Shown piece after piece: positions 5,568-63,135 of a stretch of DNA of 64,000 nt. The notes under the pieces are model-generated. The model was not told the origin of the DNA. It did not search any database and saw nothing but the letters and a program-made list of their open reading frames with translations. Numbering within the stretch: the first letter of the stretch is position 1; each line of letters opens with the position of its first letter. Made by a program: the position numbers and the translations under genes. Source of the DNA: Stegostoma tigrinum (taxonomy: Eukaryota); NCBI RefSeq assembly GCF_030684315.1, contig NC_081363.1, positions 56,610,312 through 56,674,311 on the forward strand. The letters are read 5' to 3'.

Positions 5568-5903
5568 AATAACACAGTGTGGAGCTGAAGGAACACAGCA
5601 GGCCAGGCAGGATCAGAGGAGCGGGAAAGCTGATGTTTCAGGTTGGGATGCTTCTTCATAGAACATAACATAGAACATTACAGCACAGTGCAGGCCCTTC
5701 GGCCTTCGATGTTATGCTGACCTGTCATACCAATCTGAAGCCATTTTACATATACTATTCATGTACATCCATTCAGAAAAGGTTCATGATCTGAAATGTC
5801 AACTTTCCTGTTCCTCTGATGCTGCCTGGCCTGCTGTGTTTCTCCAGCTCCACACTGTGTGGTCTCAGACTCCAGCATCGGCAGTTTTTACTATCCCTGG
5901 TTG
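5568..5903. mobile_element. Fold-back PLE-terminus element with 14 bp TSD
   Basis: Inverted arms (acacagtgtggagctg...cagctccacactgtgt); TSD aatatttttg[t/c]tgt at 5554-5567 and 5904-5917. Confidence 0.8.
5658..5772 (-). mobile_element. CR1 3' end nested at the centre of the fold-back element
   Basis: Near-identical to the 3' end of the CR1 at 19591 (atagaacat...acagcacagt.caggcccttcggcc). Confidence 0.85.
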
Positions 5904-6422
5904 AATATTTTTGCTGTGCAGCCTACTGTAGGTGCAAGTTTGACATTGCATTGGATCATTGAACAACATGCCCACCTCCTTGACTAATGACTGTTGACAA
6001 GTATGACAAGGTTTCTGGCTTTCTTTCTGCACTACGCTGTAAGATATAACAGAAGTAATGTGTGCATTTACAGGGGTCACTGACAGGGAAGCACTGAAAG
6101 ACAAAGCAAGCAAGCAGCCCTCAGATGCAGCTTAAACCAATCCTTGAGCTGGGTGCCTGAGCTTGTATGTAAAGTGTCCTTGCAGTAGTATTTCAATTCA
6201 AGGGTCCGGTCCCTCCAAAGTTCAATTGGTTTGGGAATGTGACATGATGGTGTGGAGAGGTTGGCAATGAGTCGGATGCCAACATCTGTGGATATGGGAT
6301 GAATGTAGCCACTGCCCAAGAGTGCATCCTGGGATGTTGGTGCCAGTGTCCAAGATAGCTGTCTAGAGGAACAAGAAGTGAGCTGGAGTTGACAGATACC
6401 TGCTCTGACTTCCTAATTGGAA

Positions 6423-6498
6423 ATTCTTGATGTCGAATTTCTTATAGCAGGTGGCAGAATAGGAAGCCACCTGCTATAAGAAATTCGACATCAAGAAT
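6423..6498. repeat. Perfect 33 bp inverted repeat with 10 nt loop
   Basis: attcttgatgtcgaatttcttatagcaggtggc (6423-6455) and its exact reverse complement (6466-6498). Confidence 0.97.
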
Positions 6499-6819
6499 AC
6501 TAGCAAGATGAGATTTGATGCTTGTGAGGGTAATATGGTCAATAACCCTCTTTAAGATGTAGCATCTTGCCACTCTCCAGTGAGAATCTCATATCAACAT
6601 CCAGAACCTTTTTGGCAAAATGAACCTGTTGTTCCTAACATCAAGAAAGGCCTCGCTAGACTTGTCATGTGAATCTCCCAGGTTTCTCGCCATACCAGAA
6701 CGGTCAAAGCCTTATAAGATTCTGCCTGAAATGTTTAGGTGCCTGAAATTTTGCACATCTCACTTCCAAGTCCAATAACTTTTATTTATTGTTATAAGGC
6801 AAATTAGAAACAGCTAGGG

Positions 6820-6925
6820 CTCTGAAGAAGTATCATATTGGATTTGAAATATTAACTTTGTTTCCCAATCCACAGCTGCTGCCAAACCCACTGAATTTCT
6901 CCAGTACTTTATGTTTTTATTGCAA
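6820..6925 (+). mobile_element. Solo PLE terminus (family 2) with decayed hammerhead motif
   Basis: ctgaagaag...gaaatatt followed by ccacagctgctgcc...ctgaatttctccag; homologous to 62950-63135. Confidence 0.65.
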
Positions 6926-7919
6926 ATGAATGCTGTTTTCAAAACATATTTTAAAAAGAACAAATTATTCCTAGTAACATGCTTAAACAAGTGCAGCATT
7001 GAAGAGCATGGATTGGATGGTAATAGATGGGTAACCTTGCCCGTATCTTATTTCTAAAATATATGTACAGAAATATTTCACCCTACTTTGCATATATTTT
7101 GAATCAATATTGAATAAGGAGAATTAATGACTACTTTCCTGTTGAGAAAAGCTACCGTTGCAGGTGAGGGCTGCTAACTGTGTGGGTAGCCAACTTCTAG
7201 TATATTCTCAGCTGTGACTTCAATTGAGTTTGAAAAGCTGGTTGTCAGCCAACATATTGGATGCAAATCTGTATGAACTAGATACCATTCGGATCTGAGT
7301 GAATAAGTAATCACAATGAAAAAGAATCTCAGAAATTCTCTACCTTGTGAAATTTCAAACTTCTGTTCTGCACTACTTTAACTCAATCAGAACACTTAAA
7401 AATGGTCACTTATGGGATTACTACTCGATAAGGTAGAGATTTACAAGTATGTACTTTCAGCATCAAATTGACTGCACACCAGGAATTTGGGCAGATAGGT
7501 CAACAGCCCTGCAGGATCTTTCATCCTATTGTCTGAAAAATTCTTCCTGATCACTGCCTGCACTCCTCATGCACCCTCTTGAATTTGCTCTGGATGCTCC
7601 CAGCAGGCATAGCTCGACTTTGAAAATACAACCTCACAATGGTTTACTTTGATAGCTTGTGCTTTAGTTACAGCTATTTAGAGCAATGGGAAGGAGGTAT
7701 CAGTGTCTGATTGGGCATTAGAGATTTATGAACAAGTTATCTTGAGCACATGTTTTCATACATGACTCAGAAGCCAATGAATAAATAATAATTATACTTT
7801 ATTATTATCGAAGAATTACATGACAAATAAATCTTTGCAACATTTAGTAGTTAGATATGTTGAGTTTCCGAGTGATCCAACAAATGTTTTAAAGTTTCCT
7901 TCACATCCTTTCTGGTTAT

Positions 7920-8010
7920 ACTAAAGTGTCTCGACCTGAAATATCAACTTTCCTGCTCCTCTGATGCTGCCTGGCCTGCTGTATTCTTCGAGCTCCATAC
8001 TGTACTATAC
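7920..8010 (+). mobile_element. Solo PLE terminus (family 1 variant)
   Basis: gtgtctcgacctgaaatatcaactttcctgctcctctgatgctgcctggcctgctg matches the arms at 5568-5903. Confidence 0.75.
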
Positions 8011-8109
8011 TAAAGTGAATGCTTTGATTGGTTATGTAATTAATTGATGTTGAATTCTGAGGAAATTTGAGAGATTGGTTTCCAAAAGGCACTTGAGAAG
8101 GTACCATAA

Positions 8110-11177: not shown

Positions 11178-12444
11178 TCCATCCCCTATTCCCAATTCCT
11201 CCGCCTCCACTGCATCTGCTCCCAGGATGAGGCATTCCACTCCCGCACATCCCAGATGGCCGCGTTCTTCAAGGACCGCAACTTTCCCCCGCAGTGGTCG
11301 AAAACGCCCTTGACCGTGTCTCCCGCATTTCCCACAACACATCCCTCACACCCTGCCCCCGCAACAAACGCCCCAAGAGAATCCCCCTGGTCCTCACATA
11401 TCACCCCACCAACCTCCGGATACAACACATCATCCTCTGACACTTCCGTCATCTACAACCCAACCCCACCACCAAAGATATTTTTCATTCCCCTCCCTTG
11501 TCTGCCTTCCGGAGAGACCACTCTCTCCGTGACTCCCTTGTCCGCTCCACACTCCCCTCCAGCCCCACCACACACGGCACCTTCCCCTGCAACCGCAGGA
11601 AATGCTCCACCTGCCCCCACGCCTCCTCCCTCACCCCATCCCAGGCCCCAAGATGACTTTCCATATTAAGCAGATGCTCACCTGCACATCTGCTGATGTA
11701 GTATACTGTATCCACTGTACCTGGTGTGGCTTCCTCCACATTGGGGAAACCAAGCGGAGGCTTGGGGACCGCTTTGCAGAACACCTCCCCTCGGTTCGCA
11801 ATAAACAATTGCACCTCCCAGTCGCGAACCATTTTAACTCCCCCTCTCATTCCTTAGATGACATGTCCATCATGGGCCTCCTGTAGTGCCACAATGATGC
11901 CTCCCGAAGGTTGCAGGAACAGCAACTCATATTCCACTTGGGAACCCTGCAGCCCAATGGTATCAATGTGGATTTCACAAACTTCAAAATCTCCCCTTCC
12001 CCCACTGCATCCCAAAACCAGTCCAGCTTGTCCCCTCCTCCCACTGCATCCCAAAACCAGCCCAGCTCCTCCTCTCCCCCCACTGCATCCCAAAACTAGC
12101 CCAGCTCATCCCCGCCTCCCTAACCTGTTTTTCCTCTCACCTATCCCCTCCTCCCACCTCAAGCCGCACCTCCATTTCCCACCTACTAACCGCATCCCAC
12201 CTTGACCTGTCCGTCCTCCTCGGACTGACCTATCCCCTCCCCACCTCCCACCTATACTCTCCTCTCCACCTATCTTCTCCTCTATCCATCTTCGGTCCGC
12301 CTCCCCCTCTCTCCCTATTTATTCCGGAACCCTCTCCCCATCCCCCTCTCTGATGAAGGGCCTAGGCCCGAAACGTCAGCTTTTGTGCTGCTGAGATGCT
12401 GCTTGGCCAGCTGTGTTCATCCAGCTTCACATTTTGTTATCTTT
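11178..12444 (+). mobile_element. Young 5'-truncated Penelope-like element (RT thumb, GIY-YIG endonuclease, 3' pLTR)
   Basis: SIPYSQFLRL; VVYCIHCTWCGFLHIGETKRRLGDRFAEH; 9 bp TSD tttattaat at 11169-11177 and 12445-12453; frameshifts and a stop present. Confidence 0.93.
12350..12377 (+). ncRNA. Minimal (short stem III) hammerhead ribozyme motif in PLE terminus
   Basis: CTGATGA-A-GGGC(CTAG)GCCC-GAAACGTC: conserved core, 4 bp stem II, palindromic ACGT replacing stem III; stem I is weak. Confidence 0.7.
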
Positions 12445-18843: not shown

Positions 18844-19590
18844 ATGCATGTTAAAAAAATTACTGAAGTGTTTTTGAAGCCACCTAAAGAAGTGAATCAT
18901 GTAGGAGAGAAGCTGTGGAAATTAAACAGATGCATTTCTGGATTGATGGTTGCGTCACAGGTGTGGTATTTCTTGGCTAAGTCTGTGTTCTCAAAAATAG
19001 GCTATACTCAACTGAAACCAGATCCTGCAATATCCTGGAAGAAAAACTGTGTTACATCTTTAGAGATAACAAAGTGTGGAGCTGGATGAACACAGCAGCC
19101 AAGCAGTATCACCACCCACGCCCTCCACCCCCTCCGGAACTTCCAATTCCCCGGTCCCCAATACCAAAAGAAACTAAGATGCTGTTAGCCTGCTGTGTTC
19201 ATCCAGCTCCACACTTTGTTATCTTGGATTCTCTAGCATCGGTAGTTCCCATTATCTCTGAATACATCTTTACGATTCATATTGATGATTTTGTATGGGG
19301 AGGTTCTGTGACTTTGAACAATTTGTTACATAAAAGATCAGGGGTGTATTTAAGATTAGCAGACAAGTTTTAGGAGCCTTTCAATATATAAATTTGGGCA
19401 TGAAATAGAATAGAGCAGAAATAATCTTACATTAACAATCATACCTAAAGATGCTACTCATATTCCAGGTTAGGTCATCAAAGGAAAATGATCTTACAAA
19501 AGAAACCGAGCAGTTCAGATGTTTAATTAGACAGTTAAATTGACTGTGTAAATCAGACCAGACCCAACACTAGTTGACATATTGGAAATA
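18844..19590 (+). mobile_element. Ty1/copia LTR retrotransposon RT fragment (GalEa-like by inference)
   Basis: VFLKPPKE...LWKLNRCISGL..ASQVWY...LKPDPA, then IHIDDFVWGG after removing the 19063-19262 insert, then decayed LIRQLN*/QTRP. Confidence 0.8.
19063..19262. mobile_element. Fold-back PLE-terminus element with 10 bp TSD
   Basis: Arms agataacaaagtgtggagctggatgaacacagca / reverse complement; TSD tacatcttta at 19053-19062 and 19263-19272. Confidence 0.88.
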
Positions 19591-20780
19591 ATAGAACATA
19601 GAACACAGAACATTACAGCACAGTACAGGCCCTTCGGCCCTCGATGTTGTGCTGACCTGTCATACCAATTTGAAGCCCATCTAACCTACACTATTCCATG
19701 TACGTCCATATGCTTGTCCAATGATGACTTAAATGTACTTAAAGTTGGTGAATCTACTACCATTGCAGGCAAAGCGTTCCATATCCTTACTACCCTCTGA
19801 GTAAAGAAACTACTTCTGACATCTGTCCTATATCTTTCACCCCTCAATTTAAAGCTATGCCCCCTCGTGCTCGCCGTCACCATCCTAGGAAAAAGGCTCT
19901 CACTATCCACCCTATCTAACCGTCTGATTATCTTACATGTCTCAATTAAGTCACCTCTCAACCTTCTTCTCTCCAACGAAAACAGCCTCAAGTCCCTCAG
20001 CCTTTCCACGTAAGACCTTCCCTCCATACCAGGCAACATCCTAGTAAATCTCCTCTGCATCCTTTCCAAAGCTTCCACATCCTTCTTATAATGCGGTGAC
20101 CAGAACTGTATGCAATACTCCAAGTGCAGCCGCACCAGAGTTTTGTACAGCTGCAACATAACCTCTTGGTGCTGGAAATCGATCCCTCTATCAATAAAAG
20201 CTAAAACACTGTATGCCTTCTTAACAGCCCTGTCAACCTGGGTGGCAACTTTCAAGGATCTGTGTACATGGACACCGAGATCTCTCTGCTCATCTACACT
20301 ACTAAGAATCTTACCATTAGCCCTGTACTTTGCATTCCGGTTACTCCTACCAAAGTGCATCACCTCACACTTGTCCGCATTAAACTCCATTTGCCACCTC
20401 TCAGCCTAGCTCTGCAGCTTATCTATGTCTCTCTGCAGCCTACAACATCCTTTGTCACTATCCACAACTCCACCGACCTTAGTGTCATCTGCAAATTTAC
20501 TAACCCATCCTTCTACGCCCTCATCCAGGTCATTTATAAAAATGACAAACAGCAGTGGACCCAACACCGACCCTTGCGGTACACCACTAGTAACTGGACT
20601 CCAGGATGAACATTTCCCATCAACCACTATCCTCTGTCTTCTTTCAGCAAGCCAATTTCTAATCCAAACTGCTATATCTCTCACAATCCCATTCCTCCGC
20701 ATTTTGTACAATAGCCTACTGTGGGGAACCTTATTGAAAGCCTTGCTGAAATCCATATACTCCACATCAACCGGTTTACT

Positions 20781-20808
20781 CTGATGAAGGGTCTAGGCCC
20801 GAAACGTC
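20781..20808 (+). ncRNA. Minimal hammerhead ribozyme motif
   Basis: CTGATGA-A-GGGT(CTAG)GCCC-GAAACGTC; predicted cleavage after 20808 if active. Confidence 0.7.
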
Positions 20809-20910
20809 AGCTTTTGTGCTCCTGAGATGCTGCTTGGCCTGCTGTGTTCATCCAGCCTCACATTTTATTATCTTGGAATCTCCAGCATCTGCAGTTCCCA
20901 TTATCTCTGA
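20783..20910 (+). mobile_element. Solo ~130 bp PLE terminus inserted into CR1 RT
   Basis: TSD/microhomology tactct at 20777-20782 and 20911-20916; removing it restores the CR1 text ggtttactctcatctacc. Confidence 0.92.
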
Positions 20911-22410
20911 TACTCTCATCTACCTGTTTGGTCACCTTCTCAAAGAACTCAATAAGGTTTGTGAGGCACGACCTACTCTTCACAAAACTGTGCTGACTAT
21001 CCCTAATCAATTTATTCTTTTCTAGATGATTATAAATCCTATCTCTTACAACCTTTTCCAACACTTTACCAACAACTGAGGTAAGGTTCACTGGTCTACA
21101 ATTACCAGGGTTGTTTCTACTCCCCTTGTTGAACAGGGGAACCACATTTGCTATCCTCCAGTCTTCTGGCACTATTCCTGTAGACAATGACGAGTTAAAG
21201 AACAATACCTCCCTGGCAATCTCCTCCCTGGCTTCCCAGAGGATCAGAGGATAAATCCCATCCGGCCCAGGGGACTTATCTATTTTCACACTCTGTAGGA
21301 TTTCTAATACCTCTTCCTTGTGAACCTCAATCTCACCTAGTCCAGTAGCCTGTATCTCAGTATTCTCCTCGACAAATCGTCATTTTCTAGATTGAATACT
21401 GTCGAAAAATATTCATTTAGTGCTTCCCCTATCTCATCTGATTCCACACACAACTTCCCACTACTATCATTGATTAGCCCTAATCTTACTCTCGTCATTC
21501 TTTTATTCCTTAAATACCTATAGAAAGCCTTAGGGTTTACCCTGATCCTATCCACCAACAACTTCTCATGTCTCCTCCTGACTCTTCTGAGCTCTCTCTT
21601 TAGGTCTTTCCTGGCTACCTTGTAGCCCTCAAGTGCCCTTACTGAGCCTTCACCTCTCATCCTAACATAAGCCGCCTTCTCCCTCTTGACCAGAGATTCC
21701 ACTTCCTTCGTAAACCACGGCTCCTGCGCTCTACAGCTTCCTCACTGCCTGACAGGTGCAAACTTATCTAGGACACACAGGAGCTTTTCCTTGAATAAGC
21801 TCCACATTTCTAATGTGCCCATCCCCTGCAGTTTCCTTCCCCATCCTATATTTCCTAAATCTTGCCTAATCTCATCGTAATTGCCTTTCCCCCAGCTATA
21901 ACTCTTGCCCAGTGGTATACACCTATCCCTTTCCATCACCAGAGTACACATAACAGAATTGTGATCGCTATCACTAAAGTGCTCACCTACGTCCAAATCT
22001 AACACCTGGCCGGGCTCATTACCAAGTACCAAATCTAATGTGGCTTCGCCCCTGTTGGCCTGTCTACATACTGTGTCAGGAAGCCCTCCTACACACACTG
22101 GACAAAAACTTACCCATCTATAGTACTCGAACTATAGTGCTCCCAGTCAATATTTGGAAAGTTAAGTCCCCCATGACAACTACCCTGTCTCTCTCACTCC
22201 TATCGAGAATCATCTTTGCTATCCTTTCTTCTCCGTATCTGGAACTATTCGGAGGCCTATAGAAAACTCCCAACAGGGTGACCTTTCCTTTCCTGTTTCT
22301 AACCTCGGCCCATACTACCTCAGTTGACGAGTCCCCAAACATCCTTTCTGCAACTGTGATACTGTCCTGATCAACAATGTCACATTTTATATGGAAATAT
22401 TTTACAATTG

Positions 22411-22628: not shown

Positions 22629-22629
22629 A

Positions 22630-31962: not shown

Positions 31963-32660
31963 GGGGAAACCAAGCGGAGGCTTGGAGACCGCTTTGCAGA
32001 ACACCTCCGCTCAGTTCGCAACAAACAACTGCACCTCCCAGTCGCAAACCATTTCCACTCCCCCTCCCATTCTTTAGATGACATGTCCATCATGGGCCTC
32101 CTGCAGTGCCACAATGATGCCACCCGAAGGTTGCAGGAACAGCAACTCATATTCCGCTTGGGAACCCTGCAGCCTAATGGTATCAATGTGGACTTCACCA
32201 GTTTCAAAATCTCCCCTTCCCCTACTGCAACCCTAAACCAGCCCAGTTCATCCCCTCCCCCCACTGCACCACACAACCAGCCCAGCTCTTCCCCCCCACC
32301 CACTGCATCCCAAAACCAGTCCAACCTGTCTCTGCCTCCCTAACCTGTTCTTCCTCTCACCCATCCCTTCCTCCCACCCCAAGCCGCACCCACATCCACC
32401 TACTAACTTCATCCCACCTCCTTGACCTGTCCGTCTTCCCTGGACTGACCTATCCCCTCCCTACCTCCCCACCTATACTCTCTCCACCTATCTTCTTTAC
32501 TCTCCATCTTCGGTCCGCCTCCCCCTCTCTCCCTATTTATTCCAGTTCCCTCTCCCCATCCCCCTCTCTGATGAAGGGTCCAGGCCCGAAACGGCAGCTT
32601 TTGTGCTCCTGAGATGCTGCTTGGCCTGCTGTGTTCATCCAGCCTCACATTTTATTATCT
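31963..32660 (+). mobile_element. Young 5'-truncated Penelope-like element
   Basis: GETKRRLGDRFAEH...EQQLIFRLGTLQPNGIN; perfect 12 bp TSD aggagtgaattt at 31951-31962 and 32661-32672; hammerhead motif 32568-32595 with GTC>GGC. Confidence 0.94.
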
Positions 32661-32998: not shown

Positions 32999-34883
32999 CA
33001 ATACACCTTTCACTGCACCACTCAGTTCAACAAAAATGTGAAGTATGCACGGTACACAAACTGAACAAATGAGTGAAAATTATATTGGGCTTATGCCTAT
33101 ATGATAAAAGTTTGACGTTCAGGCATTAACAATTCAGGAGTTGCTCTGGTGCAACAAATATAAGACTGTATTAAATATGGTGGCAATTCAGTTATGAGGT
33201 CCCGAGTAATCCATGATGATTTGACTCTCCGAAAGTCGTTTTACTAAGGGATGGGCTGAGTTTAATCACCAATTGTGCTCAGAGGGTAAAAACCTAATAT
33301 CATTGTTCCAAAAAGAAAGTTGCAGTGCAATATTTATTTGTTGATGTGACATTAATAAAATAGTTGTTTGTTTTAATGATACCCAAAGCTGTCCCAAAAA
33401 TTGTAGCCTATTTCTGAAATTATTCTTAACTTCTTATCAGAATTTTGTCTTTCAACTACAAAGTTTTACTGAAAACTGATAGATAAGGAAACAAAGTATT
33501 TTGCAAACAAAAGATAGTTGCTGGTTAAACATCTCAGTTAAACATAGGTTAGAGAGAAAAAATGATTCCAGCTTATCTTTATCTACTAGGAGTAGAAAGT
33601 TTTTGTTATGCAGCTTTTATTGTGTGAATATTGATACACCTATAATGACAACAGCCAATAGTTTATTCAAAACAGGTTAATATTTCTGCTAAATTTGCTG
33701 CCAGAGGAATTTTATATCAATGTCCTGAGAATATCACCACTAATAGTTTCTAGGCTTGTAAGTATGTTAGGCTGCAATGTGGAACAGACAATTCATTACT
33801 AGGTGAAAAGTTTACAAATTAGTTCTTAAAATGTAACTCGGTGCATTGGCTAAGGATTTTTATACAGTACTAGATTTGATCTCTGTGCTCTTTGAGGAAT
33901 GCAGGCTTCTACCATGCATTAGTGCTACCATCGAACTGTATGATTTATTTCCATTAACTACTTTACTAATGGATGACTAATGGGCAACAGGGTGCAAAGG
34001 GGAAAGGTCATGTTAGATTTTTAGAGTATATTACAGCTGAAAATATCCTTCTCACTCATGAACCAGTGTGTGAATGAATCAAATTGGGTGCCATAGGTAA
34101 AAAGACAAAACATTCCTGTCGCAAACAAATCCTTCAGCAGAACTTTTATTTTCTTTATGTTTGATAGATTGGTAGATGTGTGGTGTCCATCATTTCATAC
34201 TTTTTAACTAAACTTTAGCTATCATTTCCTGCACAATGTTCACTTGAAAAGTTTGAACATTTATTTCAGCATGAAAAGTTCTGATGATACAATTTATGGG
34301 ATAATTGTGATCATTGAAGCTTTGTTTTTATATGTAATGTACATGGAACAATGGTTAACAAACATTTATTCAGTATTAACAATGTTGAAAATAACATTAG
34401 TGAAAATATCCTTTTAAACGGCTTGTGATTTAATTCAGAAAGCAACTTGCATTATTGCAGCATTGGATTTTCTTTCATTCAATCTGTTGTGGGTGTTGAG
34501 TATTTATTGTTCAACCGTAATTGCCCTGACAAGGTGGTATTAGCTGCTTTCTTGAACAGCATCAGTCGTTGAGCTGTAGGAACAGCCATAGTGCAGTTAG
34601 GAAGAGAGTTCAAAGATTTTGACACAACAACAGTGAAGGAATACTCATATGGTTCCAATTAGGAAAGTGTCTGGCGTGGAGAGTAACTTGCAGCCAATGG
34701 GGGTACCATGCACCGTTGACTTGTCCCTTTGGGGTGGTGGAGATCACAAGTTAGGAAGATGCTGCCAAAGGAACTTTGGTGAGAGACTGCAGTGCATCTT
34801 ATAGATGGTATACACTGTTGTCACTGTGCCAGTGGTGACTAAAGAGAATATTGAAGGTGTGCCAATCAAGCAGATTGTTTTAT

Positions 34884-36255
34884 CAATGATAATGGGAACT
34901 GCAGATGCTGGAGAATCCAAGATAACAAAGTGTGAAGCTGGATGAACACATCAGGCCAAGCAGCATCTGAGGAGCACAAAAGCTGACGTTTCAGGCCTAG
35001 ACCCTTCATCAGAGAAGGGGATGGGGAGAGGGAACTGGAATAAATAGGCAGAGAGGGGGAGGCGGACCAAAGATGGAGAGAAAAGAAGGTAGGTGGAGAG
35101 GAGAGTATAGGTGGGGAGGTAGGGAGGGGATAGGTCAGTCCAGGGAAGCTGCACAGGTCAAGGAGGCGGGATGGGGTGGTAGGTAGGAAATGGAGGTGCG
35201 GCTTGAGGTGGGAGGAAGGGATGGGTAAGAGGAAGAACAGGTTAGGGAGGCGGAGAGAGGCTGGGCTGGTTTTGGGATGCAGTGGGGGGAGGGGACGAGC
35301 TGGGCTGGTTTTGTGATGCAGTGGGAGGAGGGGAAGAACTGGGCTGGTTTTGGGATGCGGTGGGGGAAGGGGAGATTTTGAAGCTTGTGAAGTCCACATT
35401 GATACCATTGGGCTGCAGAGTTCCCAAGCGGAATATGAGTTGCTGTTCCTGCAAACTTCAGGTGGCATCATTATGACACTGCAGGAGGCCCATGATGGAC
35501 ATGTCGTCTGAGGAATGGGAGGGGGAGTTAAAATGGTTTGTGACTAGGAGGTGCAGTTGTTTATCGCGAACCGAGCGGAGTTGTTCTGCAAAGCGGTCCC
35601 CAAGCCTCCGCTTGGGTTCCCCAATGTAGAGGTAGCCACACCGGGTACAATGGATACAGTATACCACATTGGCAGATGTGCAGGTGAACATCTGCTTAAT
35701 ATGGAAAGTTAACTTAGGGCCTGGGATGGGGGTGAGGGAGGAGGTGTGGAGGCAAGTGTTGGGGAAGGTGCCGGGTGTGGTGGAGTTGGAGGGGAGTGTG
35801 GAGCGGATAAGGGAGTCATGGAGAGAGTGGTATCTCCGGAAGGCAGACAAGGGTGGGGATGGAAAAATGGCTTGTGTGGTGGGGTCGGATTGTAGATGGT
35901 GGAAGTGTTGGAGGATGATACGTTGTATCCGGAGGTTGGTGGGGTGGTATGTGAGAACGAGGGGGATCCTCTGGGGGCGGTTGTGGCGGGGGCGGGGTGT
36001 GAGGGATGTGTTGCGGGAAATGCGGGAGATACGGTCAAGGGCGTTCTCGACCACTGCGGGGGGAAAGTTGCGGTCCTTGAAGAACGTGGACATCTGGGAT
36101 GTGTGGGAGTGGAATGCCTCATCCTGCGAGCAGATGCGGCAGAGGCGGAGGAATTGGGAATAGGGGATGGAATTTTTGCAGGAGGGTGGGTGGTGGAGGT
36201 GTATTCTAGGTAGCTGTGGGAGCCAGTGTGCTTGAAATGGACATCAGTTTCTAGC
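34884..36255 (-). mobile_element. Young 5'-truncated Penelope-like element
   Basis: ORF 35458-36093 (IPLVLTYHP, VVYCIHCTRCGYLYIGE); TSD tgttttat at 34876-34883 and 36256-36263. Confidence 0.94.
34985..35012 (-). ncRNA. Minimal hammerhead ribozyme motif
   Basis: Reverse complement CTGATGA-A-GGGT(CTAG)GCCT-GAAACGTC. Confidence 0.65.
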
Positions 36256-36903: not shown

Positions 36904-37389
36904 CCTTGAACAACTCCTCTAGTGATGTGCTGAGGCTGAGCTGATTGACCTTCACAGCAATCTTTCTTTATGCTAGGTGCTACTCCAACCAGCAGGGAGC
37001 CTTCCTCCTGATTCCCATGGACTCAGGTTTTGCTGGTGGTCTTTGAAGTCATGCTCATTTGGGAGCTATCTTAATGTACTCTCACCTCACTTTTGCAATT
37101 CAGCTCTTTGGTCTATGTTGAAACATGGTTGTACTGAGTTTAGGAGCCAAGTGGCTAAGTGCAACCCAAAAATGATCAAGTTTTTCTTTTGAAAATATTG
37201 TTTGGTAGCACTGTCAGAGACCTCTTCCGTCACTTTACTAAAGATTATGAGTTGACTGATAGGGTGATAATTGGATAGGTTGAATTTGTCCAGACTTGTG
37301 TATACAGGACATGTCTGGGCAATTTTCAACATATTGAATAACTGTCAGCATTTCAATTGAACTGGAACAGCTTGTTTAGAGATGCAGAA

Positions 37390-37516
37390 GTTAGCAAGAA
37401 CTGCAGATGGGCTGGAGTTAGAGACAATGCAGTGTGGAGCTGGAGGAACACAGCAGGTCAGGCAGCATCAGAGGAGCAGGAAAGTTAATGTTTCAGGTCA
37501 GGATCCTTCTTCAGAA
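37390..37516 (-). mobile_element. Solo PLE terminus ending at hammerhead motif
   Basis: Reverse complement starts ctgaagaaggatcctgacctgaaacatt. Confidence 0.78.
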
Positions 37517-45889: not shown

Positions 45890-46895
45890 AGAGATAATGG
45901 GAACTGCAGATGCTGGAGAATCCAAGAAAACAAAGTTTGAGGCTAGATGAGCACAGCAGGCCAAGCAGCATCTCAGGAGCTCAAAAGCTGCTGTTTTGGG
46001 CCTAGACCCTTCATCAGAAAACGGGGATGGGGAGAGGGTTCTGAAATAAATAGGGGGAGAGGGGGAGGTGGACTGAATATGGATAGAGGAGAAGATAGGT
46101 GGAGAGGAGAGTATGGGTGGGGAGGTAGGGAGGGAATAGGTCAGTCCGGAGAGGATGGACAGGTCAAGGGGGCAGGATGAGGTTAGTAGGTAGGAAATGG
46201 AGGTGCAGCTTGAGGTGGGTGGAGGGGATAGGTGAGAGGAAGACCAGGTTAGGCAGGCGGGGATGAGCTGGGCTGGTTTTCGGATGCAGTGGCGGGAGGG
46301 GAGATTTTGAAGCTGGTGAAATCCACATTAATACCATTGGGCTGCAGGGATCCCAAGTGGAATATGAGTTGCTGTTCCTGCAACCTATGGGAGGCATCAT
46401 TATCGCACTGCAGGAGGCCCAGGATGGACACGTCGTCTAAGGAATGGGAGGGGGAGTTGAAATGGTTCGCGACTGGGAGGTGCAGTTGTTTACTGCGAAC
46501 CAAGTGTAGGTCTTCTGTAAAGCGGTCCCCAAGCCTCCGCTTGGTTTCCCCAATGTAGAGGAAGCCACACCGTGTACAGTGGATGCAGTATACCACATTG
46601 GCAGATGTGCAGGCGAACATCTGCTTGATGTGGAAAGTCATCTTGGGGCCTGCGATAGGGGTGAGGGAGGAGGTGTGGGGGCAAGCGTAGCACTTCCTGC
46701 GGTTGCAGGGGAAGGTGCCGTGTGTGGTGGGGTTGGAGGGGAGTGTGGAGTGGACAAGGGAGTCACAGAGAGAGTGGTCTCTCCGGAAAGCAGACAGGGG
46801 TGGGGATGGAAAAATGTCTTTAGTGGTGGGGTTGGATTGTAGATGGCAGAAATGTTGGAGGATGATACGTTGTATCGGGAGGTTGGTCGGGTGGA
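45890..46895 (-). mobile_element. 5'-truncated Penelope-like element
   Basis: ORF 46249-46641 with GIY-YIG VVYCIHCTRCGFLYIGETKRRL; mutated hammerhead at 45990-46017. Confidence 0.92.
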
Positions 46896-47974
46896 TTTAC
46901 ACAAATTGACCTTGTTTTAGAGCAGTCGAGGCAAAGTGAGTAAGAAATATGTTAAATAATGGATGAGCTGGATTGCATGTCTATGACTAGGCTTTTTCAA
47001 TTTGGCAACTAGTGAAGGATTAAGGAACATGCACTTAAACAACCTAAGAGTTACAGTCAGAACAGTCTAGTGAGCCTCTGGTGATAATCCAGCTTGTCTG
47101 GCATTTGCCAATTCACAACACATTTCAAAGTGTGCAGCTTATTTGGGGCAGCAATCACTGCAGATAGAAGGCTTATGGCAAATTTATACATCGTCTCTGT
47201 TATTGTTTGCTCCAGATTCTAGGAATGAGAGACTGCAGCTATGAGGATAGATTGAATAAACTGAGATTGCTCCCCATGGAAAGAAGAAGGGGATTTGAAA
47301 GCAGCACAGCTTTATGCGTTAAACAGGATGAAAGATTAGTGTATTAAACAACTACTGCTAAAAATTATTTAAGTTTAAAAAAATGTCATTGGGTAAACAA
47401 CAGATAAAAACTTTTAAAGTTAAGATAAAAGTTATGTATGAAGTTGAAAATGAGATCACTCTATATTGTCACACACCAGGCTCACTTGAGGATACTTTAT
47501 CTGAAATGATGAGTTGAAATTTGAGTTAGATTCAGCAGCTGTGATAGCTTCTGTAACTGAATAGCCAGGTCTACCTTTATAGGTACACTCACTCCATAGG
47601 CACAGCAACTGTAGCAGCAAGTAAAGGTCACTCTTCTTTGCTGCTCCTGTTGGCTTGACACTTGAAAACAGCCTGAACTCCTTCTCAGCTTAACAAAGTC
47701 TTTCTGGACACTTTTTCTATGTAACTGCTTGCGTCAGAGAGACAAACCACTCTCACATGCTGTTCACAACTAGCTCAGATGGAGCTTGCGGTGGGAATTA
47801 TCTTCACAAGGTCTCTCTAACACAGATCGAGACTTAAAATGGTTGTCATCCCAAACTGGAAAATTATGGTTCCACATCAGCATTGGGTTGTCTAGGCTTT
47901 GGGCATAGGCCGTATTCATTGCCTTTTAGTTGAGGTTATTCACTTTTAACCATCTTAGCCATTAGCTTTGGTGG

Positions 47975-48054
47975 CTCTGGATGTGAGTTTGCTCGCTGAG
48001 CTGGAAGGTTGGGCAAACTCACATCCAGAACCTCAACCTGAGCTACAAATCTTT
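47975..48054. mobile_element. 80 bp fold-back insertion with 8 bp TSD (probably a third PLE-terminus family)
   Basis: 17 bp perfect arms at 47976-47992 and 48013-48029; TSD tttggtgg at 47967-47974 and 48055-48062. Confidence 0.65.
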
Positions 48055-49857
48055 TTTGGTGGGTCTCATTATCAGGTTTCTTTGGTGATGGGAAGAACTG
48101 TCCGCATCTAAAGGAAATCATATCAAGGAGTTTCTATTTACACTTGTAACTATCCATCAGATTTTAAAAAGTCTGTTGTGAGTTCTCCCTAAGATGTACA
48201 TTCTAGTCCCAATACCAGCTAATATTCACAGGGGTAGTCATATCACTTTGGGAGCCAGTTTGTAAGATCCTGTGCCCATTTTAAAAACTAATCAACATTT
48301 TTAAACATCATATGTAGTATTATAAATATACAGCCAAGGAAAAGTATTCACAATTACAAGCGAACTGTTTAGCTCAACCATAATGTTACAATGGAATCAG
48401 TCCCCTGTTATCAGAATCAGTGTTATCCAGTGCATAATAGTGTTCTGCTGCATTAAATAATGTTGATCGGTACTTTTTGAGGAGCGCAGAAAGGATACCT
48501 CCCTTCAACTGTGATGCTTATTTTACTTTGGTCTGGATAGTTTAATTAAACTCAGATGTTTTGCTGTGTAAAAGGAAATAGGCAAAGTGTATTAAAAAAA
48601 AATCATAATCGTGTAGTCTAATACAGTAAAAACTCATTGCAGATACTGAAAGTCTAAACAAATGCAGAAAATGTTAGAAAAACTCAACAAGTCTAGCTAC
48701 ATTTGTGCTGGTGGAACCATGAATAATGTTAACAATTTGTTTTAAATATTTATTTACTACGTTAATGATAATAGGTCATTGGCAACTTGCAAGACCACAA
48801 ATGAGCTAATTAATATATAATTGTAATAATATGGTTATAGATACTGGTAAAATATATCAAATATAGGGATTTAGATTATTTTGTCTAATGTTCTGAATTT
48901 TAACCCTAAGTAAAACTTTCTTAATTAAATGGCCTATTGAAATATTTGCAAACGAGGATATTTCATGTTTTTTTATTGCCCTTCCAATGTATTAAATTCA
49001 CAGAATTTTACAGAGGTTATCTTGAGTGGAAGATGAATATGATCAATGAACCTGATTTGCAGTTTTTATGGCATAGTAAAATTGAACATTGCAATATGGC
49101 TGCCAAAACAGGAAATCTCATACCGTATATTATAAATACAGTTGACATAGTCAGTCACTATAAACTAATGACTTTAATGTTAAGCGAACAGAAAAACGGG
49201 ATAAGATTTTCAAGCTCATGTCAAAATACTAAATCCCAAACTTAAAATTTGTATTATCCAACAGTTGTGATCCTACAATGTATTTTAACACACTTTCTTT
49301 TCTTTTCAAAGCCAATATGTGGTCTTTCCCATTTTTCCTGTTCCACTCACCAGGCAAAAAGTCTGTCTGGACCTTACTGCAAGGCCCTCCACACTCAGAC
49401 CAGTCCAAGCATCAGGACCTCAACTTCAGGAGGCCTAACATCTGCTCAACAATGGCTGGTTGAAGAACGTAGTGTATTGAGTCTATATTCGTCCTCAGCC
49501 AGGGTTTTGAATCATTGAGTCATTAGCCATGGTTGGAGGGATTAAACCAAATCTCAAAGTAGCCATGCTTGCTTTTCTTTCTTGATGTGGTTATGGGAAG
49601 GCAAGGTATCAGTAACCATACAGAACTTAATAATGTCCTATTTTATTTGTGTGACATGGGTTGTGCTGCATTCATGAGAATAACTCACTGTGTCAGAATT
49701 CCATGTAGGGAGACTCCAAAGTGCTCTTTGTGGGAGTCCTCCATATCCTACTGTGTGGACGACTAGGCTAAACCATCATTTATGAGAAATGCGACCTGTA
49801 TCTTTCACACACAGGTTCATTGGAACCATGACCCATGGATCCAGTTACAACAGTGAT

Positions 49858-50064
49858 GGTAAAATATGAGGCTGGATGAACGCAGCAGGCCCAACAGCAT
49901 CTCAGGAGCACAAAAGCTGATGTTTCGGGCCTAGACCCTCCATCAGAGAGCTCTCTGATTAAGAGTCTAGGCCCGAAACGTCAGCTTTTGTGCTCCTGAG
50001 ATGCTGCTGGGCCTGCTGTGTTCATCCAGCCTCACATTTTATTATCTTGGATTCTCCAACTCAC
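49858..50064. mobile_element. Spacer-less palindromic PLE-terminus element with 11 bp TSD
   Basis: ~96 bp arms centred on 49950/49951 (cagagag|ctctctg); TSD acaacagtgat at 49847-49857 and 50065-50075. Confidence 0.92.
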
Positions 50065-50229
50065 ACAACAGTGATAGTCATTGCTGTCACTGAAGTGCAG
50101 CAAATGCATTGGTAAATTGAAGAGAAAAGAGTGCTTCAGCAAGCCTAAGACAGGTAGCTATCTCCCGTGAAGAGCAAATAGGGATGAAGGGGTCCCAGAT
50201 GGTAACCTCGGGATTTGCAGGAGGTAGAG

Positions 50230-54489: not shown

Positions 54490-55175
54490 ACAACTTTTCT
54501 AGGGACAGTAGTTGCCCCTCCTCTGTTATTAAGGATATCCTCAACAGCATCTCCCCTATTTCCCACACGTATGCCCTCAAACCCTTCCCCCAATAACAAT
54601 AAAGATAGAATCTCCTTAGTCCTCACCACCCCACCAACCTCCGACGTGCAACATACTGCAATATTTCTGCAACCTACAATCAGACCCTACTACCAAAAAG
54701 ATATTCCACTATCCACTTTCCGCAGGGACCGTTCACTTCGCCACTGCCTTGTCAGCTTCAAACTCCCTGCCAAACGCTCCACCACACTCAATACCTTTCC
54801 CTGTAACCGCAGGAGATACTACATCTGCCCCAGACAACTTATACTGGAGGAACAGCACCTGATATTTTGCCTTGGAAGTTTACAGCCCAATGACCTGAAT
54901 ATTGACTTCACCAGCTTCAAAATCTCTCCTCCCCCAATCGATCTATCTTCTGACTCTCCTATCCCCTCCACCCTTCCCAATGACCAACCACAAAAACCCC
55001 AACTTGCATCCACCTACCTCCATCCCACCTACCATCCTCCTAGCCCCACCCTTCTCCCTCTTCTTAACTCTGGGCTCCCCTCCCTCTTTCCTGTCCTGAC
55101 GAAGGGTTTCAGCCCAAAACATCAACTTCCCTGCTCCTTGGATGCTGCCTGACCTGTGCTTTTCCAGCTCCACAT
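54490..55175 (+). mobile_element. Internally deleted older Penelope-like element
   Basis: ORF 54475-55152: RISLVLT, FRRDRSLR, TFPCNRRR, LEEQHLIFCLGSLQP; hammerhead-like motif at 55096-55123. Confidence 0.85.
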
Positions 55176-57733
55176 TTATGGATAACTTTTCACACAAACA
55201 TATGGTTTTGTATTGATTTAAGTTGTAATTTAATGTGCAACACATCCTAGATGTTGCGAAGAGGGATACAATGAGGCAAGGAGGTACAACATTGAGAGCA
55301 TATTGCATTCCTAATTACCAGCAGGAAAGATCAGAATGGAAAGAGTCAAAGGCAGCCTTCCTGCTTTAACTGGTGCAGCCAAGCAGGAGCACAACATCTG
55401 AGAAAGCTGCCCACTTGGTGTGGGCCTGCCTGCAGTCTGGCGAGTTTGTGATTGGGCAAGCTATGCTGAAAGACAGGATGCATTGACAAATACAGTTCCC
55501 TGCAGGAAGAATCTTTAACAGAATTCACCCTACTTTGACTCACTTATTCACCGAGGCCTGCCCCAGCCAGCCTGCCCCTTGAGATGTGAGGATCAATGAC
55601 TGTTCTTCATTCTGTGGCCTACGGCAGCATCAACAGTATCAACTATTTGCAGTGATACGGCTGGTACCGAAGAAGAGCTGGCCTCCTACTGAATGGCAGC
55701 ACTGGAAAGTGATACCTTTTCACTACAGAGCCTGGGAAGCCTGTGCTCACCAGGCAAGTTACTGACTGGGTCACGACATCTGGGAATGGCCACAGAGGTA
55801 GTTTCTCGCCAACAAACGGACTCATTGTTGATACAATTAAATATAGTCCTAAATGTGGTATTGAGTTTGTTTATGATGGAATTTGCCACAACAAGTAATG
55901 AAAAGTTTGTAGCATGTGCCCTGAATCAATATTGCTACCAGGATTTAATGGTATGTTGCATTTTAATCAACGTTCTCATCTTGTTCTTTGGACATCATAT
56001 CCTTGTAAATAGATTTTAATGATATTACCTGCTTTATGTATATCAGTTATTTGCTACATGAATATATAATTTGTACAACATTTATAATGCATACATTATA
56101 TTTTGACATCTTTTTGAATAACATGCAAGTATATTCATGTGCTAACTGCTTGAAATTCAAGCAACATTCAATGCAGTGATATCCATTTATATTTGCATTT
56201 ACAATGCAGTATTCCCACAACACTATTGTTATAACCAAGTGAGGAAGGGGAGACTGGTTCTTCTCTGTGCCCATTCCACCCTTGACTGGAATGGGAATTT
56301 GAGTTTTTAAAAAAGTGCTAGATTTCGAATCAATGTATACTCGACTGTGTGTAACAAATGAGCCAGGCTGTTATTCTTCAGTGAAGCATGTAATGAGTTA
56401 GATTTATTGCTAATACCCACTGACGTAAAAGGTTTTTAAAATGTTTTCAAATGCACAGATAGTTAGTAATTCTTACTAATGGGCAGAAACTTACATACAC
56501 TTGCCAAATGTGTAGAAAATACGCAATGTTACAGATTATCAGATGTTTAAACTGGATTAAAAGTACAGTTTGTTGTTCAGATATTTTCAGCCGAAGAAAT
56601 CACTTTTCACAATAATGGTTGGGTGTAATTCTTTTTCTCCTGAAGATAGTAGCCTTACTTCAAAATCCTTTGTTTCCAGTGGTGAGGTTTTTTTAGATGG
56701 CTTGCAAAGCACAGAAGAGTTCAAAGATTTCAGAGAGACAACTGGCCATGGAAGGGTCTGAGGGCAATTGAGCTGTCTGATACTCCCTCACTATTCAGTG
56801 TAGAATGGAAATCAGGTTGGAGGAGATGGCGGTCAGGCCATGCACTGCATCTTTTCTGAATTTCCATTCACAAATTGGAAATTTGTATTAGCATTTACCT
56901 TGAATTTTGTAGCTACATTTTTCCAGTGGACAGCAACTTTTAGTTGCTTGGAAAAAGCAAATGCCTCACAAATATTAAAAAGGGGATTTGAATCTGGTCT
57001 TATGAGATATGTAGTCAGAGAAAATGCAGCACATGCAGTAAACTGAGAAGTGAGATTAGGCCAGAAAAAGAAAACAGAAAGAGCAACATACTTAGACAGG
57101 AGAAGTAGTTCAACTTGTCTTAAGGGCAACAGGTTTAGATGATTGATGCATGAGGGATAACACATTTAAAGGTCTGTTTTGAAAAATGAACCCTTATTTT
57201 TGAAGAGGATAATGGTGATAAACACACAGATGAATCAATTTATGATGACAATTTTCAGACCTTATCATCTTATACCAGCTCCTAACCTCTGCAGAAAGTA
57301 ATAAACAGACTTTTGCCTCAAACAGTTCCATTAACCATCTTTCTTCCAAGAAATCATTTGAAAACTTTGAGTTCTCTCAGCAAAATATTGACAGTGCATC
57401 CCATAAGGAAGACTTGTACATTTAGATTGAAATCCACCTTGTGATAAAGACTCCAAAAGAAACTTACAGCCATTCATTATTATCTGTGAGGGTTCCATTT
57501 CTGAGAACCCCTGTATGATGAAATTTGTAAGTGTGGAACTCATTAAATACAGGTTAAAATGGTTAAAATATTGCAGATATGCGATTTTTGCTCACAGATA
57601 TTGATTTTTCTTGTTACTTATCTTTTGGTGTGGATAAGCGAATTCACAATTTGTGACGTAATAGATACAGAGGGTTTACTGTACAGAAAAATGCTTCAGA
57701 AGAACAAGGCTGCAATACATCTTAAGAAGCTAT

Positions 57734-58626: not shown

Positions 58627-58809
58627 AGGGCCAATCTACACAAAGTCAGTAGTGGCCAATATCCTAGAAATTATAATTCTTAGAGAATGAATACTCAAGT
58701 AGATAGGCACAGGAATATGAGAAAATTAGTTTATTAATGCCTGAGTAGAAAGGGTTAGGATTAAAAGGGAAAGTGGCTATGCAGATAGCTCCTGTCCGAT
58801 GCCGTGGGA

Positions 58810-59460: not shown

Positions 59461-59464
59461 GCCA

Positions 59465-61125: not shown

Positions 61126-62410
61126 TTTTAAAAAAGGAAATTTTACAGGATCAATTTGAATGCCAATTTACACTGTCTGATTTTACCTTCCATTGAAGTT
61201 GATGGGATGTACAACAGTGTGGGGTAAAAAGTAAATTGCTAATGCTGTCTGGCAGTTTTCTATCAGATCAACAGGCTTATGCCAACTCCAATAACTTTCA
61301 ATCCTTGATTGTGCATTATTGCGTAAAATGAAAGTCTGGTGCACCTTTATTTCTAACTTAAGGAAGGACACAATTATACATTTGCTAATATAAATCATTG
61401 ATTATTTAAATTCTTCTAGTGACTCCAGTTGAATTGACTGCTAAACTATTCATGAAATAAGAGAGCTATGAGTTAAAAATAAATAAAAAATAAATACCAA
61501 GTATTTGCTTGGTGAATCTACCTGCCTGCATTCTGACAATAACACTGACCAGATGGTGGAGCAGTCAGATATCACAAGGAGAACTGATGGTAATTTATGC
61601 TCAGTAACTTCTCAATTGAATTTGATGGTGCAGATTAGACAGCTGTTTTCATTGAAATAAATATTATTCAAAATTTGAGTGTTAGTAGAAGCCCAGTACT
61701 TAAAGCATGCTGTTCCAAAGGTAGAGATTTTTTGATGGTCCTTTTTGAAATGTGGTTCATGTCCACTGGATAAAGCTCAGGTTTGAAAATATATCAACAT
61801 AACATGATAATCTGCAAGATTGTTTATTTAACCAGTACTAAGTATTGCAGTAATAGAAACTTTGCTCATTTTTTCAAAATTATTTCCTCAGTGCAATTTT
61901 TGCTAAATAACTAAAATACCCGAAAAAATCCCAGACTTAGTGAAATCTAATTATCATTTAATTTTGATTGCAAAGAGCATTTAATTACATATAGGTAAAT
62001 AGATTAAATGAATTAAACAATAGAAAACAGATTGGACTATTGCTATTGCATCATGAGTCTTTTCTCTTCTGGTCTCTTTTGCAGTGGTTCCCTCACTCTT
62101 TGTCTTTAATTCAATACAACTGCAGTCCTCTATTCAAAATTCCTGGCACATTGATTTCAACTGTATCTTTTAATCATTGTCTTGCTATGTACCAAATGAA
62201 AATGCTTCACATTGCAAATAAATCAGATCACCAATATCGACATGTGTGATTTAGCTCAATCACAAGCTTGTATCATCACATTTATAACGTATATGACAAC
62301 AATGAACTAGACAAAATTTCTGTTTACTAAGGCTGTACTCAGTACAGGAGTTAACGTGGCATTAAAAGCTGCATTACCTGGCCTAAACCTATTGTTCTTG
62401 CTGAGAAGGA

Positions 62411-62655
62411 ATCATAGAATCTCTACAGCATGGAAGCAGGTCATTCAGCCCAGCAAATCCACACTGACCCTCTGAACAATGGACAATCCACCAAACCTGC
62501 ACAGCTTTGGACTATGGGGGGAAACTGGCGCACCCAAAGGAAACTCACACAAACACAGGGAGAACATGCAAACTTCACACAGTCACCTGAGGGTGGAATC
62601 AAACTCGGGTCCCCAGTGCTGTGAGGCAGCAGTGAGAACCACTAAGCCACATGCC
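62411..62655 (-). mobile_element. HE1-type V-SINE with internal deletion
   Basis: Homologous head and tail to the other copies. Confidence 0.8.
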
Positions 62656-62699
62656 AGCTCAGCCAGTTAATGTTAAGATAGCTTTTGGTATTTTCGTGA

Positions 62700-62900
62700 T
62701 CCGAGGACTGAAATACCACTGTAGCATTGAGCTATGCTACAAAGCTGTCTTTCAGATAAGACATTAAAACAATGCCCATTGCATAAAGAGGCAAAGATCT
62801 GACAGGATTAATGGTGAGGCATGTCATCCAGGTTTGGCAGAAGAACAGCTTAGAATCTTGAAGAATTAAGATTACCACCCCGGTCCTCCTCATAGTCTCT
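62700..62900 (+). mobile_element. Deu-domain SINE fragment
   Basis: gctgtctttcagataagacattaaaac...aaagatc...agaagaacag. Confidence 0.5.
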
Positions 62901-62949
62901 GTAATAGAGTCTATCATATCAATAATATTTGCACTAAACTCCTAACATG

Positions 62950-63135
62950 CAAAAAAAACAAAAACAGAAATTCCTAGAGAAACTCAGCAGGTCTGGCAGC
63001 ATCTGTGGAGAGAAAGCAGAATTAACATTTCAGATCTAGTGACTGTTCTTCAGAGTTCTACTGACTTGCTGAGTTTCTCTAGGAATTTCTGCTTTAGTTG
63101 TAGATTTCCAGCATCTGCCGTTTTTTGTTTCTTTT
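62950..63135. mobile_element. Fold-back PLE-terminus element (family 2)
   Basis: Arms 62965-62993 and 63063-63091 match at 28/29; minus-strand hammerhead-like motif at 63024-63053. Confidence 0.8.

Follow-up and report, generated by a model that had tools for sequence, protein, structure and literature searches.

The 64,000-nt stretch of Stegostoma tigrinum contig NC_081363.1 analysed here (positions 56,610,312 to 56,674,311 of the forward strand; hereafter the window, whose own positions are used below) contains truncated copies of a Penelope-like element (PLE) and short insertions made only of the terminus of that element. The 5' boundary of the short units is not the product of smooth truncation. 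It falls most often at the edge of the hammerhead motif near the 3' end of the element (numbered from +1, the first C of the core CTGAnGA), and the best-supported 5' junction among those listed for a related public sequencing run is at position -1. The short units are likely by-products of the element's normal copying and not a separate mobile family. The explanation favoured here, held at about even confidence, is that they are the ends of an ordinary Neptune-type PLE, probably dead-end run-off complementary DNAs (cDNAs) which the reverse transcriptase (RT) began at internal start sites and ended at the 5' end of the RNA. The boundary is a sharper-than-expected feature of a known element, and the unit works like a minimal product of PLE internal initiation.

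A terminus profile built from ten copies in the window was run on the whole 64 kb, with ten block-shuffled windows as control. The profile gave 18 strong matches (27–114 bits), whereas the shuffled windows gave four, all below 7 bits. These 18 matches comprise five long copies and 13 short arms in nine insertions, and they fall into three sequence families (A, B and C). An earlier reading of the same stretch (the sequence-only reading) had listed terminus-only insertions at 5568, 6820, 7920, 19063, 20783, 37390, 49858 and 62950; the profile recovers all eight and adds a ninth at 48632-48716. The unit at 47975, listed there as probable, is a real fold-back with a flanking duplication (47967-48062; 8 bp). 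It matches neither the profile nor any other locus in the window or among those fetched, has no core and is unrelated to families A–C, so that its PLE origin is putative only.

Eight of the 13 arms, belonging to six of the nine insertions, have their 5' end at the core (-6 to +3), where ends were read by eye and are least certain for families B and C, whose upstream sequence is poorly known. Three of the six are solo units: the core-to-tail unit of family A at 20781 (20777-20916, plus strand; insert 20783-20910), that of family B with its core at 37514 (37387-37516, minus strand) and an old tailless terminus of family C with its core at 6822 (6820-6921, plus strand). The others are fold-backs, namely both arms at 5568 and 49858 and the left arm at 62950. 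The claim that most 5' boundaries or fold-back axes lie within a few bases of the core holds for these arms and fails for five others. In the clustering test, the farthest-reaching arm of each of 14 insertions was used (47975 has no reference and was left out). One 10-nt interval holds six of the 14 ends and none lies between -7 and -545. Under four smooth models such clustering arose in 1, 209, 89 and 330 of 100000 simulations (p ≤ 0.0033).

Contigs of four public runs (X2, X8, X15 and X22) were aligned to 34870-35240, the 3' end of a long family A copy with its core at 35012. Nothing from X22 aligned. For run X2, 166113 contigs aligned, 14594 of them only partly; an even spread of these clips over 371 places and two sides would give about 20 each. 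Among the six clip places listed, the 5'-side clips are at 35013, which is position -1 (672 contigs), and at 35007 (237 contigs), and if the listing gives the best-supported places, no 5' place other than 35013 exceeds 237. The clip consensus at 35007 begins like a family B fold-back with its axis on +2. On the 3' side, clips are found at 34888 (1209 contigs), 34920 (1127) and 34921 (510). The reference is deviant at 34888, and in the clip consensus the tail continues to about +132. The 3' ends thus form two sites about 35 nt apart (about +93 and +130), matching the known PLE tail. At the core the depth shows a drop of about four-fold: bins 34922-34999 have about 20 million and the 17 bins of 35013-35233 about 5 million, with a flat course upstream. 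Depth is not a copy number, and related families contribute to the terminus only.

The same data bear on the view that truncation is smooth and that the peak is an alignment artefact, produced because the families share sequence only from the core onward. Other families do inflate the depth of the terminus: the contigs of X8 (525 aligned) and X15 (52 aligned; putatively an RNA run) represent such families, cover only this part with a UTR (untranslated region) that does not align, and neither confirm nor refute the peak. The reading of family B and C boundaries by eye also favours it. However, the sequences clipped at 35013 have a median length of 255, are AT-rich and are as unlike one another (agreement 0.36) as those of true 3' junctions (0.38–0.43); from a diverged UTR, G/A-rich sequence would be expected on this strand. 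A genuine variant behaves differently: the sixth listed clip, at 35179, is an indel variant with an agreement of 0.8. Target-site duplications (TSDs) or a split host frame lie at the boundary for 20781, 49858 and 5568, and the clustering in the window is improbable under the four smooth models (p ≤ 0.0033). This view is already largely refuted and retains only a very small probability.

Judged by its sequence, the parent is an endonuclease-bearing PLE, and the putative Neptune-type label is based on a cysteine linker together with the vertebrate-like host. The longest PLE-like open reading frame (ORF; 35458-36243, minus strand) is 82–83% identical to the proteins P0001 and P0002 of two carpet sharks. 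It has 23 homologues, several of about 900 amino acids with an RT domain, and in P0002 both an RVT_1 and a GIY-YIG domain are present; a Pfam scan of the window ORFs on their own gave no match to either. The linker CxxxxCxxC between RT and endonuclease (EN) occurs in ORF 46249-46896 and in the alignment consensus. It is also found in Nematis (PMC8557442). The order RT then GIY-YIG, the linker, a minimal type I hammerhead near the 3' end, a tail at one end, an inverted 5' copy and a TSD were all observed.

None of the five long copies is full length. Four are 5'-truncated members of family A: 11178-12444 (plus strand; end of the RT, GIY-YIG, C-rich 3' UTR, core at 12350, no tail, 9-bp TSD), 31963-32660 (plus strand; GIY-YIG, UTR, core at 32568, no tail, 12-bp TSD, subfamily alleles as in 20781 and 49858), 34883-36255 (minus strand; core at 35012, tail; the alignment reference is taken from it) and 45890-46893 (minus strand; core at 46017, tail, linker, GIY-YIG, no TSD found). 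The fifth, at 54550-55180 (plus strand; core at 55096), is old, carries internal deletions and groups with family B. TSDs of 8–12 bp were found in three of four long copies tested. A 39-bp tandem of about three copies lies at the end of the family A nuclease ORF (11992-12120, 32212-32323 and 35245-35373).

Several short units also carry TSDs. These are significant at 5568 (14 bp with one mismatch, p=0.0003), 7929 (12 bp, 0 of 3000 random pairs), 19063 (10 bp, p=0.002), 49858 (14 bp with one mismatch, p=0.0003) and 47975 (8–12 bp, p=0.015–0.001). At 20781 the 6-bp duplication (20777-20782/20911-20916) is not significant alone (p ~0.05), and the insertion splits the RT frame of a host long interspersed element (LINE) in register; the last four bases of this duplication also match element positions -2 to +2, a 4-nt microhomology at the 5' joint. 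The unit at 37390 has only a doubtful, gapped look-alike of 13–14 bp, and no TSD was detected for 6822, 62950 and 48716. Fixed ends and TSDs, traits of short interspersed elements (SINEs), are present: 5' ends peak at -1 and 3' ends at +92/+93 and about +130, and five to six of ten short insertions have TSDs. The long copies have the same two 3' ends, and with their 8–14 bp TSDs in common this agrees with the proposal that the PLE RT/GIY-YIG protein is the likely mover.

The hammerhead itself is present with core, helix II and a palindromic helix III region. Helix I has 2 bp in family A and 3–6 bp in 19 of 22 distinct motifs drawn from 80 related metagenome loci. With the cut placed after GAAAC-GUH (+27 to +30), a helix I of at least 3 bp forms in 19 of the 22 motifs, against one of 110 shifted registers. 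Family A has the same register, and its predicted cut is after +28 (after 20808 in the solo unit). RNA cut there would start at +29 and lose the core, which the short copies keep; the boundary at -1 is therefore not explained by cleavage. Furthermore, the predicted cut site (34984, end at +29) is not among the six best-supported X2 clips listed. The description of the units as ribozyme-delimited is supported by neither point. Cleavage at a CUC triplet, which would give an end at -1, was rejected on fold reasoning, as helices III and I are unable to pair in that register. An Rfam scan of the window gave no hammerhead match and four sub-threshold microRNA matches, and in folding none of six termini was better than its shuffles (z = 0.3 for the unit).

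Three further CTGAnGA...GAAA motifs with hammerhead-like spacing (26073, 14281 and 60754, all minus strand) are unmatched by the terminus profile and may belong to decayed families. In a full-length relative (L004:1028-1062), the hammerhead is traversed by a frame of 900 codons, the first ATG of which overlaps the site of the predicted cut.

The relatedness of short and long copies bears on whether the units form a lineage of their own. At non-CpG sites from +1 to +86, the unit at 20781 differs from the long copy 32568 at 2 of 80 sites and from the other long copies at 4–6, whereas long copies differ among themselves at 6–10. Alleles at +77, +83 and +87 are common to 20781, both arms of 49858 and 32568, and 20781 has the family majority at every site compared. 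In a tree of 18 window rows and 92 columns, in which one of 15 inner branches is starred, the 19063 arms stand at the base of family A beside long copy 35012 (an open fork), and long copy 55096 stands among family B. The short/long label needs three changes on this tree; 0% of 200 bootstrap trees give one change, and shuffled labels need 4.6 on average, with 31–34 of 500 shuffles as low. Family C, with four arms, has no long member in the window. In this small sample with its weak tree, short and ORF-bearing copies interleave within families A and B, contrary to a separate SINE-like lineage with diagnostic substitutions. The sequence-only reading held that such interleaving, combined with a smooth spread of 5' ends, would reduce the units to ordinary truncation products. 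The interleaving was observed, with weak support, and the smooth spread was not, given how seldom smooth models produce the clustering (1–330 of 100000 runs) and the position of the top X2 5' clip at -1. Its proposal that the 5' ends are no random truncations is borne out.

A separate SINE or retrozyme lineage thus has no support in the window sample. More generally, a self-propagating family, whose short copies would be transcribed, processed by the ribozyme and moved in trans as lineages of their own, is rather improbable. Its fixed unit length, its TSDs, the several-fold excess of terminus over UTR in X2 and the lack of a long family C copy are in keeping with it. Among the X2 joints listed, head-to-tail ones with a period of 94 nt (17 contigs) or 134 nt (3 contigs) would hold two hammerheads each. 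PLE-derived retrozymes with monomers (10.64898/2026.07.22.740005; PMC7229834; also PMC6765202 and PMC8969392) and non-autonomous PLEs (PMC8557442) are published as well. Against it, cleavage in the register set by helix I pairing would leave no 5' end at -1, helix I has 2 bp in family A, the unit folds no better than its shuffles, and the shared subfamily alleles tie short copies to long ones. None of the nine short insertions is tandem, and Tandem Repeats Finder detects no array of this unit across the window. The X2 joints listed contribute 41 contigs, against 672 solo clips. RNA polymerase III (Pol III) boxes were not found in the unit: the best A-box has three mismatches, and the best B-box has two and lies upstream of the A-box match (the box consensus is that printed in PMC8969392). 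The Rfam scan found no tRNA, 5S or 7SL family in the window. Finally, the Anolis PLE protein requires RNA beyond the tail (PMC11167929), which solo units do not have. A 31-nt terminus pattern had no match in viral, metagenome and genome contigs, and a PLE protein profile found no relative in viral contigs.

The fold-backs are informative about how the units arise. At 5568 (5554-5917, family B), a TSD (5554-5567/5904-5917) encloses an inverted arm without tail (5568-5658) and a direct arm with tail (5776-5903), and the axis is core base 2. At 49858 (49847-50078, family A; TSD 49847-49860/50065-50078), the inverted arm (49861-49950) and the direct arm (49951-50058; partial tail and six unmatched bases) both begin at -4 and abut with no gap. 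The fold-back of family C (62955-63135, no TSD found) has an inverted arm at 62955-63059 (core at 63053, reaching about -6, no tail) and a direct arm with tail at 63060-63135 (from about +55). The fourth, which lacks the core, spans 19053-19272 with a 10-bp TSD; its inverted arm (19063-19110, from +47) and its direct arm with tail (19174-19262, from +43) are separated by 63 nt. In all four profile-matched fold-backs the tail is on one arm only. The arms of 49858 share an allele at +55 that is absent from five other copies compared, and those of 62950 share two changes. A common layout with a short inverted left arm and a longer right arm had been described; at 62950 the left arm is longer, which contradicts it.

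Some features of these loci stand by themselves. The plus strand carries the tail-looking arm in all five fold-backs (5568, 19063, 47975, 49858 and 62950; 1 in 16 by chance, two-sided, with the tail of 47975 guessed). The C-rich spacer 19111-19173 has no match elsewhere in the window; it may be RNA that was captured, or a region of the element not otherwise seen. A LINE 3' piece of 113 bp (5659-5771, minus strand; 4-bp duplication 5655-5658/5772-5775), which the sequence-only reading did not mention, splits the 5568 unit at its axis. This piece is 88% identical to 19591-19709, and we take it to be CR1-like. It sits exactly on the fold-back axis, perhaps at a site prone to hairpins.

Loss of the body by recombination could also produce solo termini and fold-backs. 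In this route, full-length insertions with an upstream pseudo-long terminal repeat (pLTR) starting at -1 would lose their body by pLTR recombination, and fold-backs would form where an inverted pLTR was present. The published layout of inverted pLTR, pLTR, ORF, pLTR and tail would indeed collapse to the fold-back seen here, and recombination has been suggested for rotifer solo pLTRs without TSDs (PMC3846280). However, no long copy in the window is full length, and the repeats would be only about 94 bp. The consensus of the X2 tail-end clips is flank-like (agreement 0.43), so few tails continue into a body, and the match of 20781 to the family majority at every site compared leaves little time for such a loss. 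Recombination is thus very unlikely to be the source of the units.

According to the favoured run-off explanation, the RT would start internally, close to the front of the element RNA, and fall off an RNA 5' end that would be located at the boundary just before the core. The competent start in the transcript would be the first pLTR–body junction, giving a short cDNA that ends at the RNA 5' end. This end would be either the start site of transcription or a trimmed, protein-protected end at helix I, and the solo units themselves would be poor templates. The PAc protein of Anolis Poseidon, a clade other than Neptune, provides a precedent: in vitro it cleaves the two target strands and extends each, initiates at a pair of internal RNA sites delimiting the tail and needs RNA beyond them, and yields shorter products from 5'-shortened RNAs, while hammerhead cleavage is dispensable (PMC11167929). 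In related elements from the 80 metagenome loci, 3' ends likewise fall in two groups (+79 to +102 and +133 to +164). A fold-back would then represent two cDNAs of one template, one for each target strand and start site, joined head to head. This two-cDNA view is suggested by the tail on one arm (four of four), the alleles shared between arms at 49858 and 62950, both 49858 arms at -4 and the 5568 axis at +2. Ends at -1 finish in the 5-nt near-palindrome TCWGA, through which they could anneal, placing the axis on core base +2 as at 5568. Self-priming of a cDNA on the core hairpin was rejected; it predicts second arms starting near +30, and none of the four does so.

A number of observations weigh against run-off at an RNA 5' end. 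RNA polymerase II does not usually start on a U, the base at -1; the clip consensus there shows no extra G, and the boundary coincides with a jump to 82–87% pyrimidine in the long copies. The RNA 5' end is deduced from contigs, which cannot show starts. Run X2, which contains 67% of the words of the 20781 region (sample up to 69%), is not established as the same species as the window, and its clip figures describe six listed places and are not a count of all ends. Five of the 13 arms end off the core: the family B solo at 7929 (+11, without core; 7917-8017, plus strand, TSD 7917-7928/8006-8017), the old family C solo at 48716 (about +35, without core; 48628-48716, minus strand, with tail), both arms of 19063 (+43 and +47) and the right arm of 62950 (about +55). 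Among related loci that hold a second copy, only one of 12 such copies begins at the core (L012, +2) and the others begin from -46 to beyond -600, in metagenome loci that were picked by ORF and among which solos could not appear. The sole full-length relative with a direct upstream pLTR (L004) starts it at -118. Similarly, the start of Penelope in D. virilis lies some 120 nt upstream of helix I, with an exon of 46 nt and an intron of 75 nt in between (PMC2377424).

Two candidate signals at the boundary were discarded. A splice acceptor at -1 in family A was rejected, as there is no AG and no spliced joint among 15 joints listed. An initiator-like pyrimidine heptamer near the 49858 axis has four such matches in the 67 nt searched and is no evidence.

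The main rival is a roadblock with microhomology trimming, which is unlikely. The RT, copying from the downstream terminus, would often stall on entering the C-rich pyrimidine tract 5' of the core, owing to a bound protein or to poor synthesis of G-runs, and the G-rich cDNA end would be trimmed to the last pairable A at -1 or -3. In all five long copies the 60 nt upstream of the core contain 48–53% C and 82–87% pyrimidine; in the 22 metagenome motifs, where the boundary is mostly absent, the same zone contains 16–41% C and 55–73% pyrimidine. The 4-nt microhomology at the 20781 5' joint agrees with such trimming, and splicing factors could sit at helix I, as the D. virilis intron ends there (PMC4209133). 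On the other hand, an AT-rich stretch at about -33 to -26 predicts a second peak, which is absent among the six clip places listed, and all five long copies crossed the whole tract and end in the ORF. Moreover, family A has no AG at the boundary (the nearest are at about -24 and +9).

Joints within X2 contigs favour the run-off explanation. Nine joints that go back were listed, with 46 contigs. The start is at 35011-35017 in 41 of them, of which 24 are joined to the +92/+93 end; an RT that jumps back to a start site once it has reached the end of its template would give this pattern. A further possibility, speculative and rather doubtful, is that the shark PLE hammerhead acts as a template boundary and not as a cutter. 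The telomerase-related RT would begin inside the RNA and copy a fixed template of 94 or 130 nt, with the 5' edge of the fold as its limit, and could jump back to the start. If the hammerhead were such a boundary, strong-stop-like insertions would number many thousands, fold-backs would arise by annealing of the core near-palindrome, and the 94-nt tandems would be retrozymes at birth.

Other joints were observed in the same run. A joint from 34965 to 34887/34888 recurs (depth 485 and 95, where single contigs have about 10–15) and connects +48 with the end of the tail. It agrees with the second 5' boundary observed at 19063 (+43/+47) and may represent a tandem of about 79 bp that lacks the hammerhead. 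In joints between tails on opposite strands (34881/34921, 8 contigs), the long 3' end meets the short one. The family A tail end repeats the first core bases (TCTCTGAT) at a distance of 134 nt (20776-20785 and 20903-20911), an arrangement that resembles a telomerase template with its two ends. A tandem joint of the corresponding 134 nt (35014 to 34881) occurs in only 3 X2 contigs among the joints listed, and family C is without the repeat. Unrelated to the PLE profile is a near-perfect 80-nt hairpin at 6421-6500, which gave a sub-threshold microRNA-like Rfam match.

PLE tails, inverted ends and solo termini are already published. Neptune-clade EN+ PLEs (PMC8557442, PMC3846280) have an RT plus a GIY-YIG at the C terminus with the cysteine linker and a minimal hammerhead near the 3' end, as here. 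They also share heavy 5' truncation, an inverted truncated head-to-head copy, a 30–40 bp tail at one end and TSDs of 8–10 bp, and palindromes at the inverted joint and solo pLTRs are described in PMC3846280. The accessible text of these papers describes variable truncation, whereas here a large class stops at one base, on the 5' side of the hammerhead, and whole insertions consist of the terminus alone. Anolis Poseidon PAc resembles the present case in two 3' ends 30–40 nt apart downstream of the hammerhead, in the use of both target strands and in the absence of RNA reads ending at the cut (PMC11167929). It differs in clade; its 3' ends were mapped, and the accessible text mentions neither a genomic 5' hotspot nor run-off insertions.

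Metazoan non-LTR (long terminal repeat) retrozymes are likewise non-coding, pLTR-related, dispersed as monomers and equipped with a type I hammerhead. They occur also in one cartilaginous fish, and their mobilisation by PLEs has been hypothesised (PMC7229834, 10.64898/2026.07.22.740005). In contrast to the present units, they comprise tandem hammerhead units and circular RNAs, with a mean unit of 363 bp in one chondrichthyan tested (same sources). Here the units are mostly solo or inverted and 94–130 bp long, helix I has 2 bp and tandem joints are rare; no insertion in the window holds tandem units each with a hammerhead, and the boundary at -1 is not the end that hammerhead release would give. 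Dispersed minimal hammerheads, mostly single and in some cases in opposite-strand pairs 100–700 bp apart, have been considered 'probably related to truncated PLEs' (PMC4209133); the accessible text of that survey contains no boundary analysis and no mention of sharks. A one-base 5' hotspot at the hammerhead edge was not found in the literature searched, which did not cover Repbase/Dfam and subscription papers; the genomic coverage of the Anolis terminus plotted in supplementary figure S2 of PMC11167929 may already include a 5' boundary. The accessible parts of PMC12602865 and PMC12910113 contain nothing on such a hotspot. The formation of pLTRs and inverted ends and the role of the hammerhead are called open questions (PMC8557442, PMC11167929, PMC2377424).

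For annotation, units of this kind can mimic a SINE, a miniature inverted-repeat transposable element (MITE) or a microRNA hairpin, though they may belong to none of these classes. For the biology of PLEs, a 5' hotspot that is one base wide and recurs in hundreds of loci records in nature where the RT stops. It makes testable where the template RNA starts, whether both inverted arms originate from one RNA and whether retrozymes originate from RT jumping.

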